Shown: in pieces, positions 16,351 to 23,476 of the stretch
How positions within the stretch are numbered: position 1 is the stretch's first letter
How the letters are laid out: the number at the start of each line of letters is the position of its first letter
Source: a virus
Direction: 5' to 3' (one strand)
Virus record (IMG/VR): IMGVR_UViG_3300017733_000025
DNA length: 32,900 nucleotides
Translations under genes and position numbers: made by a program
Notes under the pieces: generated by a model
What the model saw: the letters and a program-made list of their open reading frames with translations, nothing else
Told to the model about the DNA's origin: nothing
The model's database searches: none

Positions 16351-17097
16351 TTATTCCAAATTTTCTTGCTTTTCTTTTCCGCAATATAAACATAAAAATA
16401 GGCGGTATTGCCCCACATATCCCGTATCTCGCCATTTATGGCCGTCTATGGCGCAATCATGCACCTTTTGTGGCTTGTTTTCATCTACCATTTGACCTAA
16501 TAATGTCCAATTTTTAGATATTGCAAACGGCGTTAATGTAATATCTTTCCATTTAGTCTTATAAATTTTTACCCGATCCGCTACTTCGTCGGGGGTTCCA
16601 CCTGCTGTATAAATATCTTTTACTACTTTATTGAATCCGCTAATTTCCGTTTTTGTTTTAGGTTCATAATCTAAAGCAATAGATAACGCGCTATAAATTT
16701 TATAGCGCTCATTCTTTTGACTTTGGTTAGATGACTTTGGTTTGTAGTCCGTATTTGATACGCCCCCTTGTTCATATTTGATACCCCCTTTACGTTCATT
16801 TTTGAACGCGGGATTGTAAATTATTGTGTATAGATTGCTTGTTTGCCCGTCGTCGTTATATCGGGGATCAATTACAATTGCTCCAATTTTTTCTAATTCT
16901 TTCAATCCGCGCTTTACAGTACTTGGAGATTTTCCACATTTTTGTCCAATTGTTTTAATACTTGGCCAACATGATCCGTCAATCTTATCTGCGTATCTAC
17001 ATAGAACGGAATATACGCGAAAAGCATTATCAGAAATTTCACTAATTGTTAGCCACTCGGGTATAATAGAAAAGTATAGCTGTGCATTTATTTGCAT
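16351..17097 (-). CDS. Putative replication organiser/initiator (winged-helix N-terminal domain, C-terminal Cys/His cluster)
   Basis: N-terminal AFRVYSVLCRYADK..GSCWPSIKTIGQKCGKSPSTVKRGLKELEKIGAI is typical of phage HTH replication/DnaD-like proteins. Sits next to the annealase. Confidence 0.5.
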   Translation of the reverse strand: MQINAQLYFSIIPEWLTISEISDNAFRVYSVLCRYADKIDGSCWPSIKTIGQKCGKSPSTVKRGLKELEKIGAIVIDPRYNDDGQTSNLYTIIYNPAFKNERKGGIKYEQGGVSNTDYKPKSSNQSQKNERYKIYSALSIALDYEPKTKTEISGFNKVVKDIYTAGGTPDEVADRVKIYKTKWKDITLTPFAISKNWTLLGQMVDENKPQKVHDCAIDGHKWRDTGYVGQYRLFLCLYCGKEKQENLE

Positions 17098-17137
17098 TGT
17101 TGCCCTTTCTAAAGAGCGGGATTCGTCCCGCTCTTTA

Positions 17138-18525: not shown

Positions 18526-19077
18526 TCAAGCGTCTTTAATTTCATATCCAAAATTTTCTAATACGGCAAGACAAAAGTTTTCCAAATCCGCTAAATCTAG
18601 GCTTATGATTCCGCCCGTAGATCCGTCAGGCATTGATACATGAGCAAACGGTTTTTTTTCGGATCCAATTGCAATATGGTTAAAATCGCTTTGCCTTTTA
18701 CCTTTCATAAATACATTTACCAAAGGTTGAACTTGCTTACCGCTTTTAACTTCTACTCGTAATCCGCCAAGCCAATTCTCCTCGTGCGCGTCCGCTCCCG
18801 CAAACCTATTTGACGGAATTTTTAATAATTTTCTAGCTTGGTTTTGTTTTCGTCGGCCTTTTGATCTATTACGTCTGTTAATACATTTACGACATTGACA
18901 TTTGTTCTTTTGTTCTTGAGTAACATCACATTGGCCAATAGATCTTTTAGAACTATTTTTTTCGCTCATTGAGCGGGGTAAATTATTTTCTTCCCCTTTT
19001 CTACGTTTCCAATCACTATAAGTTTCATCAGGCCTTATATCAAATTCGTTTGGCTCTTTGCCTTTTATTTGTCCCAT
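18526..19077 (-). CDS. Putative PD-(D/E)xK-type nuclease / resolvase with a basic Cys-containing N-terminus
   Basis: GADAHEENWLGGLRVEVKSGKQ contains a D...E-x-K arrangement. The N-terminal CQCRKC cluster and Arg/Lys-rich segment suggest nucleic-acid binding. Weak call. Confidence 0.35.
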   Translation of the reverse strand: MGQIKGKEPNEFDIRPDETYSDWKRRKGEENNLPRSMSEKNSSKRSIGQCDVTQEQKNKCQCRKCINRRNRSKGRRKQNQARKLLKIPSNRFAGADAHEENWLGGLRVEVKSGKQVQPLVNVFMKGKRQSDFNHIAIGSEKKPFAHVSMPDGSTGGIISLDLADLENFCLAVLENFGYEIKDA

Positions 19078-19162
19078 TTAGAGCGGTTTGGTCGGATCTG
19101 CCCCGCCTCTTTTATTATGGAATAATAACGTGCGTCTATTTACACTAAAACCGCACTATTAA

Positions 19163-19786
19163 TTATAATGCGTTGTTTTCTCTAAGGAAATCCTCACAAA
19201 AATTTATTAGCGCTTTTGTTTTAGATTGAGATTTATTATCTAAATTATAAAGATCTTTATAACCTTTAATTGCTTTATCTAATATGACCAATTCATCTTC
19301 ATTAAAATAAAATGTTCTTGAATACATTGACGTCCGATCGCCTGTTTCTATATCTCCGAACGCGTCGTCAAATGTCATTGTTCCCGCTATCTCAAAAAGT
19401 TCTTTTTCCGTGTATGATATTGCGTCCAATATTGAGGGGTCGCTCTCTAGAGAACTAAGCATGTCGGCCAAAAAATCTTGATCTATTGTCCCCAATTCGC
19501 TTGTTCTATTATCCGCAATAGCAAAGGCTTTAGCCGTTAATTCGTCATCATCTGTAAAGACAACGGCTATATGCGACCAACCTAGTTTTCGTGCGGACTC
19601 CAACTGATGATTGCCCGATATAACCGTTCCGTCTTTAGTTGCAACAATTGGTTTTCGTTGCCCGAATTTGTCGTATGATTTTGCAATTGCATTTACATCA
19701 CCTCTACGAGGATTGCCGTCTAAATGTTTTAATTGATCTATTGGCGTTGCTAACTCTATAATTGATTCATTAATTTTATGATTCAC
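19163..19786 (-). CDS. ParB-like nuclease-domain (ParB N-terminal/sulfiredoxin-like) protein
   Basis: LDGNPRRGD...GQRKPIVATKDGTVISGNHQLESARKLGWSHIAVVF matches the ParBc domain pattern (NPR ... G-x-H-R/Q ... A-x-x-L-G). ATGA overlap with the upstream Mom-like gene. Confidence 0.7.
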   Translation of the reverse strand: MNHKINESIIELATPIDQLKHLDGNPRRGDVNAIAKSYDKFGQRKPIVATKDGTVISGNHQLESARKLGWSHIAVVFTDDDELTAKAFAIADNRTSELGTIDQDFLADMLSSLESDPSILDAISYTEKELFEIAGTMTFDDAFGDIETGDRTSMYSRTFYFNEDELVILDKAIKGYKDLYNLDNKSQSKTKALINFCEDFLRENNAL

Positions 19787-20490
19787 AATTTTTCTCCTTT
19801 GTACATTCTTGCTCCTATTTTTTTAATCTCCTCGTATGGTATTGGATCCATAGTTAAATTTTTTTCTAGTTCGGGTTTTAAAAACTTTATATATCTTAGT
19901 TGATATCCCTCCAATACTTCTGCTCCAACTTCATCACAAAATTTCTGCCAATTAAATGTTTTATTCGTTATATCAAAGAATGATCTGCCCCCGAGCATGT
20001 CCATTTTTCTTGTTGGCGCACTAGCGAATGTCATTTTATGAATTATCTCTCCGTTTGGAAATCTAGCCAATTGTTTATTTACTTTTATGTTGGTTAAAAT
20101 AAACCCCGTTGCTCTATAAATAGTTCCGTCCCCGCATTGAGTTCCGTCCGCGAACGTTATAATCCAATCTATTTCGGGTAAATGTTTTTTAATTAGTTTT
20201 AAAGTAACTCCAATAGCTCTTGATTCGCTGTTTTTTGGTAAATTATCAGATAAAACCATTCTATTTAATTCAAGAAAGTTATTCCATTTAGTATTTTTTA
20301 CTAATCCAATTATTTTTGTTTTATCTAAACTAGCGCCATATTGTAAAACTCCCTCTAGCCGATCATTATAAAAAACGCCAAAATGTATTTTTGAATTATT
20401 GACTATTTTACCCGAGTAATGATGACGTTTAATAAATGAATTAGCCCGTTGTACAGGGATCATTTTTATAACTATATCTTTAGCGTTCAT
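19783..20490 (-). CDS. Mom-like GNAT-fold acyltransferase (candidate DNA base-modification enzyme)
   Basis: ANSFIKRHHYSGK..., ...FLELNRMVLSDNLPKNSESRAIG...LIKKHLPEIDWIITFAD...GTIYRATGF follows, block by block, the layout I recall for phage Mu Mom and its homologues. No SD precedes the ATG. Confidence 0.55.
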   Translation of the reverse strand: MNAKDIVIKMIPVQRANSFIKRHHYSGKIVNNSKIHFGVFYNDRLEGVLQYGASLDKTKIIGLVKNTKWNNFLELNRMVLSDNLPKNSESRAIGVTLKLIKKHLPEIDWIITFADGTQCGDGTIYRATGFILTNIKVNKQLARFPNGEIIHKMTFASAPTRKMDMLGGRSFFDITNKTFNWQKFCDEVGAEVLEGYQLRYIKFLKPELEKNLTMDPIPYEEIKKIGARMYKGEKL

Positions 20491-20504
20491 AAGTTTAGTA
20501 TAAC

Positions 20505-20525
20505 AAAAAAGCGGGATAATCCCGC
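20505..20525 (-). terminator. Intrinsic terminator 14 nt upstream of the Mom-like ATG
   Basis: Stem GCGGGA/TCCCGC (6 bp, 3-nt loop) followed by UUUUUU on the minus strand. Confidence 0.65.
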
Positions 20526-20794
20526 TTATTTGCTTGGCTTGGATCCTACGTCGTACTCTATCATTTTTGCCTTAGGTTTCTTACGCCTTAGGTTACTTAC
20601 AAAATGTTGGCTTACTGTTAGTATCAGCAGTGGATTTCATATCCAATTTACCAAATTTTGATTTTTACTATTCTAGTTATCGGGGTTTTCTCCCCCGTTC
20701 TAAAGCTCTAGTTTCGCCTAGATCTTCCGCCTCGTGTCTAGTTTTTCCGTTGGGTTTTCGCCAATCTCCGAGTTCTCTAGTCATGCCTTAGCAT
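20526..20794 (-). ncRNA. Candidate ~270-nt noncoding transcript (or micro-ORF leader) bracketed by promoter copy 5 and a terminator
   Basis: No ORF longer than 35 codons on this strand. It holds four ACUAGA-initiated units, two similar hairpins with GAAAAC-type loops, and a tandem GUAAG-N-AACCUAAGGC duplication. Class unknown. Confidence 0.3.
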
Positions 20795-20800
20795 GTCCTT

Positions 20801-20828
20801 AATATACCAATCTTAGATTTATATGCAA
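20801..20828 (-). promoter_or_regulatory. Conserved phage promoter motif, copy 5 (TTGCAT-N16-TATATT)
   Basis: The minus strand reads TTGCATataaatctaagattggTATATT, immediately after the stop of the SLT-like gene. Confidence 0.5.
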
Positions 20829-20847
20829 GTATTTAACAAGATTTTTT

Positions 20848-21255
20848 TTAATAATTCCAACAATGCTTTGAGCTATTCCAATGATACCACCCGTCGTTTT
20901 TGATTAACCATTTAGCAACGGCCGTTGAAGTTTCGGGATCGTATCGGGATTCTTTAATATTTAATTTAGCTTTTAGCCAAGCCCAAGTATTGTCGTTGAA
21001 CTGCCAAAGGCCGACGTCTCTAGTTCCATTTTTGTTATTATTTACGGCATATTCTCGCCCTGATGATTCACAAAATATAATTAATAAAGATTTTTGTACG
21101 TCGTTTGGATCATTAAAATACTTAGAAACTAAAGGCTCCCATTGTATAACGTGGCTTATTTTTTCGTTTTTATCTCTACATTCTTGATAATTGTCTAATG
21201 AATCTAATGTAAGAGGGGTCAGGAAAGTACAAGCAATTAATACTTGAGCAATCAA
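20848..21255 (-). CDS. Secreted lysozyme-like / SLT-domain lytic transglycosylase
   Basis: IIFCESSGREYAVNNNKNGTRDVGLWQFNDNTW resembles the catalytic Glu-Ser and GL-Q-N motif of SLT/lysozyme-like domains. Hydrophobic N-terminus (IAQVLIACTFLTPL). TTG start, somewhat uncertain. Confidence 0.6.
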   Translation of the reverse strand: MIAQVLIACTFLTPLTLDSLDNYQECRDKNEKISHVIQWEPLVSKYFNDPNDVQKSLLIIFCESSGREYAVNNNKNGTRDVGLWQFNDNTWAWLKAKLNIKESRYDPETSTAVAKWLIKNDGWYHWNSSKHCWNY

Positions 21256-21260
21256 TTGAG

Positions 21261-21422
21261 TTACTTACCTAGTAGAAATTCAATTGCTAAATTTGGGTCA
21301 AGATCTTTAATTCTTGTAATTCCGACTTTTAAATCCTCCGTTATGAAGTTTCCTTTGTCGTCATTATAAATAATTTTGGTTTTGATCCCGTCGTTTTCAA
21401 ATCCAATTAATGTTTTTGACAT
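21261..21422 (-). CDS. Possible 53-aa leaderless ORF (below the track threshold)
   Basis: MSKTLIGFENDG... The ATG lies exactly 6 nt after a TGTGTATAAT extended -10 box. It fills the gap before the SLT-like gene. Confidence 0.4.
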   Translation of the reverse strand: MSKTLIGFENDGIKTKIIYNDDKGNFITEDLKVGITRIKDLDPNLAIEFLLGK

Positions 21423-21428
21423 ATTATT

Positions 21429-21458
21429 ATTATACACATTTTTTTTAATTCAATACAA
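21429..21458 (-). promoter_or_regulatory. Putative leftward early promoter (TTGTAT-N18-TATAAT with TG extension)
   Basis: Seen on the minus strand in the 96-bp divergent intergenic region. It overlaps a degenerate copy of the conserved spacer motif oriented toward the plus-strand gene. Confidence 0.4.
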
Positions 21459-21517
21459 GATTTATTAAATACGAGATTGTTTTTATATTTGGTGTTAGTA
21501 TTAGTGCAAACGAGCCA

Positions 21518-22729
21518 ATGGTAAAAAAAGCAAAAAAAATAACCAAAAATAAACAAGAAATTCCTCATAATCTTGATTTAGGTAACAACTATTACCCGTC
21601 GGGTTGGAAACCAAAGCTTGAGTTTGATCATAATACAAACGTTGGAGAACTAACTCATATTCAACCACAATCAGACAATTTTAAATTTAATGAACTATTG
21701 GATTCATGGGGTTACGATTCAAACGTTTTCTACATAGAGGAGGATAGAATAAAATTCTCTACATGGGAGGCTCAATCTAAAGGCGGACAAGTAATTCAAA
21801 TGTTTGCTTTTAAGGCAACTATACGGAGAAAAAAACCTAAACATAACCAATATATAAAAAAGCTTGAACGTCAAATTGCAAACAAAAAGCCCGTAAAGGT
21901 ATCTCAAGAAGTTGGAGATCATGCTTTTTTCTTTTTTTGTGCCGATTGGCAGTTCGGAAAATCTGAATACAACGCCGAATGGGGAGCCGACGAAACCATT
22001 GATTATATTCGCAATGGAATTATTAAAGCTAAAAAACAAATACGGGACTTGAACAAATCGGGTCAAATAATAGACGAAATTTATATAATAGGTTTAGGAG
22101 ATTTAATTGAGAATTGTTACGGATTTTTTGACCACCAACCTTTCAACGTAGAGCTAACCCGTACAGAACAAGAACATCTAGCTCGTAAAATGTTGCTTGA
22201 AGTACTAGACGGATTATTAAAACTAGCTCCTAAAATTGTTATCGGAGCCGTTGTTGGTAACCATTCTGAATATAGATCAGGAAAAAATCAAGTATCAACA
22301 TCAAGACTAGACAACTCCGATACCGCAATATTTCAAATCGTTGGAGAAATTATTGAGGATAGAGAGAGATACAAGCATGTTAAAACAGTTGTGCCTAATG
22401 ATTTTTATTTAACAATTGACGTTAAAGATCAAAGATTAACTTTTTATCATGGTCACATGACGGGTGGCGGATCCAACATAGAAAATAAATTAATGAATTG
22501 GTGGAAAAATCAAGCCCATGCAAAAATCGTAAGCGGAAGTTCGGACATTTTAGTATCGGGACATTATCATCATTTACGAGTATTAACTGAACGTGGCCGT
22601 ACTTGGTTTCAATCCCCCTCGCTTGATACATCAAAAGAATTAGAGGCGCGTATGGGATTAACAACTTCACATGGAATATTAACATTCACCGTTTCAAAAA
22701 ATGGTTGGGATAATCTAAAAGTACTATAA
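21518..22729 (+). CDS. Calcineurin-like metallophosphoesterase (Mre11/SbcD-like nuclease candidate) with a ~140-aa N-terminal extension
   Basis: Ordered motifs GLGDLIEN, VGNHSE, FYHGH and SGHYHH match metallophosphoesterase blocks II-V. One of only two plus-strand genes. Confidence 0.7.
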   Translation: MVKKAKKITKNKQEIPHNLDLGNNYYPSGWKPKLEFDHNTNVGELTHIQPQSDNFKFNELLDSWGYDSNVFYIEEDRIKFSTWEAQSKGGQVIQMFAFKATIRRKKPKHNQYIKKLERQIANKKPVKVSQEVGDHAFFFFCADWQFGKSEYNAEWGADETIDYIRNGIIKAKKQIRDLNKSGQIIDEIYIIGLGDLIENCYGFFDHQPFNVELTRTEQEHLARKMLLEVLDGLLKLAPKIVIGAVVGNHSEYRSGKNQVSTSRLDNSDTAIFQIVGEIIEDRERYKHVKTVVPNDFYLTIDVKDQRLTFYHGHMTGGGSNIENKLMNWWKNQAHAKIVSGSSDILVSGHYHHLRVLTERGRTWFQSPSLDTSKELEARMGLTTSHGILTFTVSKNGWDNLKVL

Positions 22730-22903
22730 AGAACTCGTTGATCAAAAAAACAATGTTGATTTTTAACGGTTTAACTCGTTAATTTTTAAATTGATTCCTA
22801 CGTTTAAGGGTTTAACTCGTTAAATTTCAAAACAAATCCTACGTTTAAGGGTTTAACTCGTTGTTTTTCAAAACAAATCCTACGTCTAACGGTTTAACTC
22901 GTT
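22727..22903 (+). repeat. Iteron-like tandem array, 41-bp period, about 4.5 copies (core GGTTTAACTCGTT)
   Basis: The core sits at 22768, 22809, 22850 and 22891, exactly 41 bp apart. A partial copy (AACTCGTT) lies at 22732. The flanks (aaatcctacgtttaag) are also conserved. Confidence 0.85.
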
Positions 22904-23070: not shown

Positions 23071-23160
23071 CCGTGCATGCAATAATTCGCGCGTCCTATT
23101 TAGACGGTTTCCGTGCATGTTGGACAACGCGTGTCCTATTTAGACGGTTTCCGTGTATAA
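23071..23160 (+). repeat. Second tandem array, 40-bp period, about 2.3 copies (CCGTGCATG...GTCCTATTTAGACGGTTT)
   Basis: 23071-23110 and 23111-23150 align with few differences, and a third unit begins at 23151. Locally GC-richer than its surroundings and followed by an AT-rich tract. Confidence 0.8.
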
Positions 23161-23188
23161 ATCCATTTAAAAAAATATTAAATAATAC

Positions 23189-23216
23189 TTGCATTTAAAT
23201 CTAAGATTGCTATGTT
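23189..23216 (+). promoter_or_regulatory. Conserved phage promoter motif, copy 6, plus-strand orientation (TTGCAT-N16-TATGTT)
   Basis: TTGCATttaaatctaagattgcTATGTT, 26 nt upstream of the 61-aa ORF, which has a GGAGG SD. Confidence 0.5.
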
Positions 23217-23242
23217 TAAGTCAAGAAAACGGAGGAACATAA

Positions 23243-23428
23243 ATGAAATTATTTATAAAATTAGTATTAATTTCTATATTTAACAAAAAGTATATTAATT
23301 GGAATCAATTAAGTTTAGATCTTGCTTTTTCTTTAGCGAAAACAAATCTTTTGTTTCACCCTGAAGATAAGCCATTTAATAAACTTCTTACTAATAATGA
23401 AATAAAAATATTAGTTAGCGACGATTAA
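23243..23428 (+). CDS. Hypothetical 61-aa protein with a hydrophobic N-terminus (stand-alone cassette)
   Basis: It has its own promoter motif, a GGAGG SD and a downstream terminator. N-terminal MKLFIKLVLISIF looks like a signal or TM segment. Confidence 0.5.
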   Translation: MKLFIKLVLISIFNKKYINWNQLSLDLAFSLAKTNLLFHPEDKPFNKLLTNNEIKILVSDD

Positions 23429-23449
23429 ATATATTATAAAAAGTAAAAT

Positions 23450-23476
23450 GGCGGGATCATAACTCCCGCCATTTTT
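23450..23476. terminator. Bidirectional intrinsic terminator between convergent units
   Basis: 7-bp stem GGCGGGA/TCCCGCC with a 7-nt loop, T-run downstream on the plus strand and A-run upstream. Serves both the plus-strand cassette and the end of the late operon. Confidence 0.65.

Follow-up and report, generated by a model that had tools for sequence, protein, structure and literature searches.

A swappable cassette between the SLT-lysozyme and Mom-like genes of a marine siphovirus as a candidate small-RNA moron

Organization of the locus

We analyzed IMG/VR virus record IMGVR_UViG_3300017733_000025 (the window; 32,900 nucleotides [nt]), focusing on the 357-nt spacer that separates its SLT-lysozyme gene (20848-21255) from a Mom-like gene (19783..20490, minus strand). 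The latter encodes a Mom-family GNAT enzyme (Pfam Mom PF25680, E=1.1e-54; PHROG 1384, E=6e-50), and it is followed by an overlapping ParB-like gene (19163-19786, minus strand). Within the spacer, a minus-strand unit at 20505..20847 comprises a promoter, two putative RNA modules (A and B) and a terminator, and the whole of it is absent or replaced in relatives of the phage. We argue that this unit is a moron-like accessory cassette, and that it probably specifies an independently transcribed and terminated small RNA that is co-regulated with the other copies of its promoter and acts in trans.

The cassette promoter (20801..20828, minus strand) contains a -35-like TTGCAT (20823-20828), a palindrome, AATCTAAGATT, within its spacer (20809-20819), and a -10-like TATATT (20801-20806). 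A first-pass annotation of this DNA had described the 28-mer as the fifth copy of a promoter, and the repetition is real: the window has five occurrences of the 19-nt core, TTGCAnnTAAATCnnAGAT, at 2960, 12998, 16017 and 20810 on the minus strand and at 23189 on the plus strand, compared with 0.11 occurrences in shuffled sequence. All five copies fit a long conserved motif, ATACTTGCAnnTAAATCnnAGATTGsTAnnTT, in which the palindrome takes the form AATC-N3-GATT; this motif also matches the Bacteroidota-type pattern TTG-N19-TAnnTTTA. The other copies precede protein-coding genes that have leaders with a Shine-Dalgarno (SD) sequence of the GGAG type, 4-9 nt from the ATG, and given these leaders we dropped a general theme of leaderless mRNAs behind the promoter copies. 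Scanning IMG/VR with the promoter motif returned a few relatives and chance hits only.

At its other end, the cassette is bounded by an intrinsic terminator (20505..20527, minus strand) consisting of the stem-loop AAGCGGGAUUAUCCCGCUU at 20509-20527 and a U-run (T-run 20505-20510). It scores on both strands and ends 14 nt before the Mom ATG, the distance given previously, with the stem itself shifted from the 20505-20525 first proposed. The suggestion that this terminator is leaky fared less well, as it has a canonical strong hairpin and U-run and no antiterminator partner was seen. The three strong intrinsic terminators of the window (20509-20527, 17110-17137 and 23445-23475) share the stem core GCGGGA...UCCCGC, which is probably a common terminator design. 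GCGGGA/UCCCGC followed by U is also the acceptor-stem sequence of bacterial tRNA-Gly; we set aside the idea that the cassette terminator mimics this acceptor, as the core is common to all three terminators.

A second moron-like unit lies at 23184-23476. It begins with the plus-strand copy of the same promoter (23189-23216), continues with an SD-containing leader and a 61-codon open reading frame (ORF; 23243-23428), and ends in the bidirectional terminator at 23445-23475. Relatives hold other genes at that position.

Variation of the cassette slot among relatives

The Mom-like protein of the window belongs to a 90%-identity cluster that also includes proteins from genomes of the uncultured Mediterranean phage (uvMED) type and from Tara, JGI and Logan marine contigs of 30-33 kb. 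All sister phages compared, which we number with the prefix L, are syntenic for the Mom, ParB-like and SLT genes. Ten contigs with an identical Mom protein have an identical spacer. More distant relatives, in which the flanking genes including Mom are 87-93% identical in DNA and arranged in the same order, have sharply different spacers. The slot is empty in sister phages whose Mom is 97% identical and whose SLT gene is the same, with a spacer of only 13 nt (L004/L005) or 25 nt (L035-38 and L047).

Filled slots differ in their cargo. Modules A and B occur together in the window lineage (357 nt) and, with a variant A', in uvMED L040 (359 nt), and A' is joined to a different module, C, in uvMED L028/29 (310 nt). 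Tara L041/42 carry C with a recombinant A (A''), in a slot of 385 nt in the rearranged L042 contig; L031/32/34 combine B with a further module, D (292 nt); and minimal cassettes hold B alone (L048, 221 nt) or C alone (L033/L039, ~173 nt). Every filled slot (173-359 nt, and 385 nt in L042) nonetheless reads promoter, cargo, terminator, a TGTTATACT element and the Mom ATG, with the terminator kept and the cargo in a fixed orientation between it and the promoter. We regard the cassette as a moron-like accessory unit because the slot is empty in some relatives and holds swapped cargo in others, while promoter and terminator stay constant. It is thus present or absent at a gene junction between syntenic close relatives and, at the level of sequence, carries its own promoter and terminator around the cargo.

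A short direct repeat flanks the cassette on the minus strand, with its left copy, TTGTTAAATACT (20828..20839), in the A/T-rich region upstream of the promoter and its right copy, TTGTTATACT, at 20497-20506. The 25-nt empty site of L035 (TTAAAAATTTTGTTATACTAAATCT) contains one copy of this repeat. These repeats fit gain and loss of the cassette by short-homology recombination. Scanning IMG/VR with a pattern made of the terminator and its flank returned the same contig only, and the same pattern applied to JGI metagenomes yielded one extra variant, L039. A pattern for the hairpin-bearing units recovered, in IMG/VR, the same contig and chance hits inside coding genes only.

RNA modules and their constraint

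The minus-strand RNA spanning 20491-20800 is predicted to fold more stably than any of 100 shuffles (z = -3.36), and the minimal C RNA and the B+D RNA behave similarly (z = -3.10 and -2.86, respectively). As the first-pass annotation had stated, minus-strand ORFs in the stretch from the promoter to the Mom ATG do not exceed 35 codons; frames above that length are found on the plus strand only, as mechanical ORFs of 53 and 70 amino acids.

Module A (20662..20784, minus strand) holds ACTAGA-led units, two hairpins and a 35-codon ORF (20677-20784). Most of what had been listed for this segment was recovered as described: the four TCTAGT sites at 20672, 20707, 20737 and 20776, a five-codon MLRHD ORF (20777-20794), and the hairpins UUGG-CGAAAAC-CCAA (20750-20764) and CGGGG-GAGAAAA-CCCCG (20681-20697). 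The reported cluster of CTAG tetramers is indeed the densest in the window (Poisson P ~2e-5 per 120-bp window, ~0.006 after correction), with five members (20673-20780) instead of six. The ACTAGA-led units are ~67% alike at a 69-nt spacing. Module A is confined to the window lineage, uvMED L028/29/40 and Tara L041/42, and two of the four ACTAGA starts, the MLRHD ORF and the stop position of the 35-codon ORF are not conserved in close relatives. Its divergence between the window and L028, 11.4% against 18% at third codon positions of Mom, suggests that it is under weak constraint and evolves fast. The stem of the second hairpin (20681-20697) is retained through a double change from G-C to A-U, and the C-to-U half of this compensatory change is also the nonsense change that gives the ORF an earlier stop.

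Module B (20528..20661, minus strand) is predicted to form a Y-shaped three-way junction at 20600-20660, with hairpins at 20631-20645 and 20613-20629, in a fold that is reproducible. Next to it, two copies of a 16-nt repeat (20569-20600; 93% identity by TRF) account for the tandem duplication noted previously; they form a CCUAAGG quasi-palindromic hairpin, and it is because of this hairpin that the segment appears duplicated. A conserved AGGAUCC motif (GGATCC at 20541-20546) lies beyond. Beyond the window lineage, the module recurs in L040 and L031/32/34, and L048 has it as the sole cargo. The window, L040 and L031 agree at every position of its first ~75 nt, and an A-to-G change in L048 retains a G-U pair.

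Modules B and C diverge by 2-8% where third codon positions of Mom diverge by 18-30%. For module B alone the divergence is 2.3-7.8% (P 7e-4 to 2e-12 compared with Mom third positions). In module C, all five variable columns fall in predicted loops, three of them with three different bases, and all 30 paired columns are invariant. Because B and C share a 5' segment (AAAUUUGGUArAAUyGG...GAAAUCCrC) and a 3' segment (AGGAUCyArC), as read by eye, they are probably versions of one RNA, with an extra internal ~75 nt in B. A covariance model built from module C recovered the shared terminator hairpins only, and thus provided neither proof of homology between B and C nor further copies. Palindrome and restriction-site density in the cassette is ordinary for the genome.

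Coding potential of the 35-codon ORF

Comparison of the 35-codon ORF of the window with its L028 counterpart reveals 3 synonymous against 9 non-synonymous codon changes, and the latter include the nonsense change that moves the stop. The Mom and ParB-like genes in the same comparison show 77 and 9, respectively (Fisher p=5e-6 versus the ORF). The initial description of poor SD spacing holds, with an AAGG stretch 1 nt from the AUG. The frame therefore has neither a synonymous excess nor a usable ribosome-binding site, and its product would contain no cysteines. Conservation of this ORF as a protein had been named beforehand as a finding that would count against a non-coding RNA; with a ratio of 3:9 set against 77:9, the ORF is without protein-level constraint in this comparison.

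The start of Mom

The Mom ATG at 20490 has no SD sequence, in agreement with the first-pass annotation, which had also recognized the gene as Mom-like. An extended -10-like element, TGTTATACT (20497..20505, minus strand), ends 6 nt before this ATG and is nearly invariant across filled and empty variants of the slot; L004 has TAGTTATAAT followed by AATTTT, and L048 has TGTTATAAT. Its -10-like hexamer lies exactly 6 nt before the ATG in all variants, and is mostly TATACT preceded by TGT, with TATAAT in L004 and L048. The 6-nt spacer in between varies (AAACTT, TTTTAC, TTTTTT, AAATCT or AAATTT). We infer that transcription of Mom begins from an extended -10 promoter of its own, yielding an mRNA that is leaderless or nearly so. 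In Bacteroidota, SD-poor starts are commonplace.

Empty-slot phages have the same SD-less start, and thus this start is ancestral and not a product of the cassette. Nor does Mom need the cassette, since relatives with a 97%-identical Mom have a spacer of 13 or 25 nt. By eye, we saw no partner (CCCGC-like) for the 5' arm of the terminator in any of the four upstream modules; with no upstream competitor for the stem seen, a conditional attenuator is unlikely. These observations contradict the proposal that the cassette exerts tight, Com-like control over a toxic Mom, given that it is dispensable in relatives, its cargo is swapped, and the SD-less start predates it.

A tRNA-Gly-like gene near Mom

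Mom of phage Mu transfers glycine from Gly-tRNAGly to adenine N6 (PMC13219725). In the window, an unannotated, non-canonical tRNA-Gly(UCC)-like gene (19081-19154, minus strand) fills the 85-nt spacer after the ParB-like gene, 1.3 kb downstream of the cassette. TATAAT (~19162-19167) lies 7 nt upstream of it, and the ATG of a 183-codon ORF follows 4 nt downstream. The element folds as a cloverleaf with an NCC anticodon, in an anticodon loop AUUCCAU; its acceptor stem is GCGGUUU/AAACCGC followed by U73, and no CCA is encoded. The identity set of bacterial GlyRS comprises G1:C72, C2:G71, G3:C70, U73, C35 and C36, and the element carries it. The canonical tRNA core (D-loop GG and T-loop UUC, as sought by standard tools) is absent: default ARAGORN and the Rfam tRNA model (E<=10) both miss the element, and only the mitochondrial mode of ARAGORN calls it, as Gly/UCC.

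The element is invariant across the clade except in its D-loop, empty-slot phages included. A sister clade (L002, L003 and L006-11; Mom 63-67% identical) has a cloverleaf with the anticodon ACC or UCC 8 nt upstream of Mom, beginning 7 nt after TATAAT, and the window element differs from that of L002 by at least 6 compensatory pair changes, as read by eye. The gene order is Mom, ParB-like, tRNA-like here and ParB-like, tRNA-like, Mom in the sister clade, so that the tRNA-like element follows the ParB-like gene in both. This suggests that the three form one module.

We surveyed tRNA genes more widely by applying relaxed ARAGORN to 80 IMG/VR loci that contain a Mom-like gene. It made 22 tRNA-Gly calls and 11 with odd loops (UC/AC/AUCC) at up to 150 nt from Mom, versus 2 of other types, so that ~40% of the loci have a tRNA-Gly(-like) gene this close to Mom; elsewhere in the same 80 loci, 7 of 83 tRNA calls were Gly. 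When 30 Mom-adjacent elements are aligned, G1:C72 and C2:G71 hold without exception, and the acceptor and anticodon stems covary extensively. Many of these genes lie under the default detection score, and a T-arm GGCGG-N7-CCGACC is common among them. Examples include L002:789-862, L049:776-849, L058:3238-3312 and L127:2478-2554, with ~30 others in L049-L127. Text searches of Mom papers and other literature found no mention of a linkage of tRNA-Gly(-like) genes to Mom. An atypical tRNA-Gly(-like) donor thus appears to be a recurrent, dedicated partner of Mom-like genes, and in this phage the 19081-19154 element, and not the cassette, is the likely RNA partner of Mom. The linkage suggests that DNA hypermodification draws on a dedicated, phage-supplied glycine donor, one possibly without a role in translation.

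Genome context

The window covers approximately the whole of a ~33-kb siphovirus genome with 35.6% G+C, from a marine phage of the uvMED type. Nearly all genes lie on the minus strand, and they include terminase, portal, capsid, tail, tape measure, replication initiator, Rad52-like annealing protein and exonuclease genes. PADLOC returned nothing for Mom, and for the ParB-like protein only a type II methyltransferase model; the ParB-like protein otherwise matches ParB-N/methyltransferase-associated families. BLASTN of 19000-22000 against 50,697 GenBank phage records gave zero matches. Scans of GTDB genomes for the core of module B and for the promoter motif also gave no match, revealing neither a host nor a cellular origin.

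Three further repeat regions were noted. A 23-bp tandem repeat (x2.8; 16745-16809) within the replication-initiator gene (16351-17097; HTH_36, PHROG 270) looks like the iterons of an intragenic origin, as in lambda O. Two long noncoding arrays, at 22762-22903 (41 bp x3.5, 88% identity) and 23071-23155 (40 bp x2.1), lie between the plus-strand exonuclease gene and the promoter copy at 23189; they may serve in packaging, as a second origin or as an array bound by regulators.

Discussion

The mechanism that we propose for the cassette is as follows. A ~290-nt transcript would start at one of the five copies of the phage promoter; it would consist of two exchangeable structured RNA modules, a fast-evolving A and a strongly conserved B, and would end at the strong bidirectional terminator. 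The product would be a non-coding small RNA acting in trans on a host or phage target, serving neither as an antitoxin nor as a leader for Mom. Mom itself would be expressed independently from the conserved extended -10-like element between the terminator and its ATG, with the terminator mainly shielding the Mom start from upstream transcription. A novel phage non-coding RNA had been offered as a fallback in the first-pass annotation, and it is this option that gains support, from the swapping of modules, the absence of protein-level constraint on the ORF and the sequence constraint on B and C. The location of the variable slot beside anti-restriction genes makes a role in host takeover or anti-defence plausible.

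Several points weigh against this interpretation. Covariation is thin: each module is represented by 3-5 distinct sequences, and the compensatory pairs number two overall. The low divergence of B and C could stem partly from recent exchange between phages instead of purifying selection. Rfam 15 gave no gathering-level match in the window, where the best sub-threshold score was 21.6 bits against a 75-bit cut-off, and nothing in the variant cassettes; permissive thresholds likewise produced nothing credible. In a scan for duplexes between modules A and B and the 47 translation start regions of the phage, the candidates were no better than those of shuffles (15 of 20 and 2 of 20 shuffles as good, respectively). 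The position of the cassette directly beside Mom could itself be functional, for instance through terminator read-through. Finally, short ORFs in B (12 and 15 codons) and C (21 codons from TTG) may yet act as peptides.

Among the rivals to a trans-acting small RNA, the foremost, though still unlikely, is a cis-acting leader or attenuator, in which a regulated promoter and structured leader would control the Mom–ParB-like operon by conditional read-through of the terminator. It would account for a terminator 14 nt before the Mom ATG, in a geometry kept in every filled variant, and for the structure of the upstream RNA (z = -3.36); moreover, in phage Mu the Mom enzyme is costly and mom is tightly controlled. 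Yet the same operon exists without a cassette in empty-slot relatives, the terminator is strong and canonical with no alternative partner seen in four different upstream modules, and replacement of a whole sensor with only promoter and terminator kept is not expected of a regulatory leader. Rfam gave no T-box or other riboswitch match, and the conserved -10-like element past the terminator argues for separate initiation. We also think it unlikely that the SLT–Mom slot is an RNA-level arms-race locus whose swappable modules A-D act as decoys or mimics against host immunity. Such modules could mimic type III antitoxins or CRISPR repeats, or act as sponges for tRNA-targeting defences, and they could be kept for this purpose beside an anti-restriction module of Mom, ParB-like gene and dedicated tRNA-Gly-like gene. 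In a narrower version, module B could be a tRNA-like RNA without a T-arm, with Mom, GlyRS or the tRNA-Gly-like donor as its partner. The 7-nt loop AUACUAA of its predicted Y-fold is similar to AUACCAU, the anticodon loop of the tRNA-Gly-like element in the L002 clade; ARAGORN made no call in the cassette at -ps80 or in default mitochondrial mode, and called it only in a setting that produces noise.

Slightly less likely is that the cassette encodes small proteins, namely the 35-residue product of module A and/or 12-21-residue peptides of B and C, with roles in host takeover or anti-defence and under diversifying selection. The module A frame is open in all three versions (35, 34 and 34 codons) without indels, gene callers annotate it in 10 contigs, its start resembles a decayed form of the SD-containing leader behind the other promoter copies, and in B a UAAGG lies 5 nt ahead of the AUG of a 12-codon ORF. 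Against these stand a 3:9 ratio with no sign of purifying selection, an SD spacing of 1 nt, and a stop-moving change that is one half of a compensated stem change. Module A is also missing from the functional-looking minimal cassettes with B or C alone, the 12-codon ORF of B has no stop in L031, and the candidate C ORF changes almost only non-synonymously, at predicted loop positions. We place still lower a DNA-level element or neutral debris: repeats bound by a protein such as the ParB-like one, the scar of a recombination event, or a former gene in decay that no longer has a function. The clustered CTAG tetramers, the flanking short direct repeats and the mosaic character of the region speak for it. 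Debris is at odds with the conservation of B and C far above near-neutral sites; in addition, the cargo has a fixed orientation between promoter and terminator in every case, relatives such as L028 have lost two of the four ACTAGA sites, and palindromes are no denser than is ordinary for the genome. The resemblance to a type III toxin-antitoxin locus raised in the first-pass annotation, in which a toxic Mom-like or ParB-like protein would be neutralized by a repeat RNA, at a ratio of RNA to protein fixed by the terminator, comes down to the order of promoter, repeat-containing RNA, terminator and gene. This explanation is hardly credible: there is no tandem array of near-identical 34-48-nt units (TRF finds the 16-nt x2 repeat only), Pfam and PADLOC detect no ToxN/AbiQ, CptN or TenpN family protein, cassette and gene do not co-occur across relatives and so are not inherited together, and the repeat-bearing module A is the least conserved part.

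Taken as a small-RNA moron, the cassette offers a natural example of modular design in abundant uncultured marine phages, and this reading removes an attractive but unsupported story in which an RNA antitoxin or a Com-like switch restrains a toxic Mom. Its empty slots are natural knock-outs and the cassettes with B or C alone are minimal versions, which could guide work on phage regulatory or anti-defence RNAs.

Comparison with known systems

Phage morons, first described in lambdoid phages of the HK97/HK022 type, are promoter–gene–terminator units between conserved genes, and IpeX and DicF of cryptic prophages are examples that bear small RNAs. The cassette resembles them in having its own promoter and terminator, in lying between genes that are adjacent in relatives, and in being present or absent in syntenic genomes. 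It differs in that its cargo is apparently a non-coding RNA of exchangeable modules (A, B, C and D) and that, in place of a foreign promoter, it carries a copy of the one that serves the phage's own regulon. We consider it an unclassified case of a phage moron carrying a small RNA.

With type III loci (ToxIN, CptIN and TenpIN) the cassette shares a promoter, repeat-containing RNA, terminator and downstream gene, but it has no near-identical array or endoribonuclease toxin, and its RNA and gene are not co-inherited. The pseudo-ToxI RNA of phage PhiTE, a phage-borne decoy, illustrates a possible function for the modules. In phage Mu, mom is controlled by Com, a zinc-finger translational activator, and by C, Dam and OxyR at the level of transcription. 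The window likewise has a Mom-family gene with an unusual SD-poor start and a special upstream sequence; unlike in Mu, it has no com-like ORF upstream of Mom, and its cassette is dispensable in relatives and is predicted to form a separate, terminated transcript.

T-box leaders of the tRNA-Gly-sensing glyQS type are also long structured RNAs with a terminator before a gene, and the Mom family uses Gly-tRNAGly (PMC13219725). The cassette is unlike them in having no Rfam T-box match even at E<=10, no antiterminator that we could see, and interchangeable modules, and the regulatory logic would have to be inverted. The tRNA-Gly-like element at 19081-19154, for its part, recalls the non-proteinogenic tRNA-Gly of Staphylococcus (FemXAB), in which a dedicated atypical tRNA-Gly serves a GNAT-type aminoacyl-transferase outside translation. 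In contrast to that tRNA, the element is phage-encoded, lies by the gene of a DNA-modifying Mom-like enzyme and is far more degenerate.

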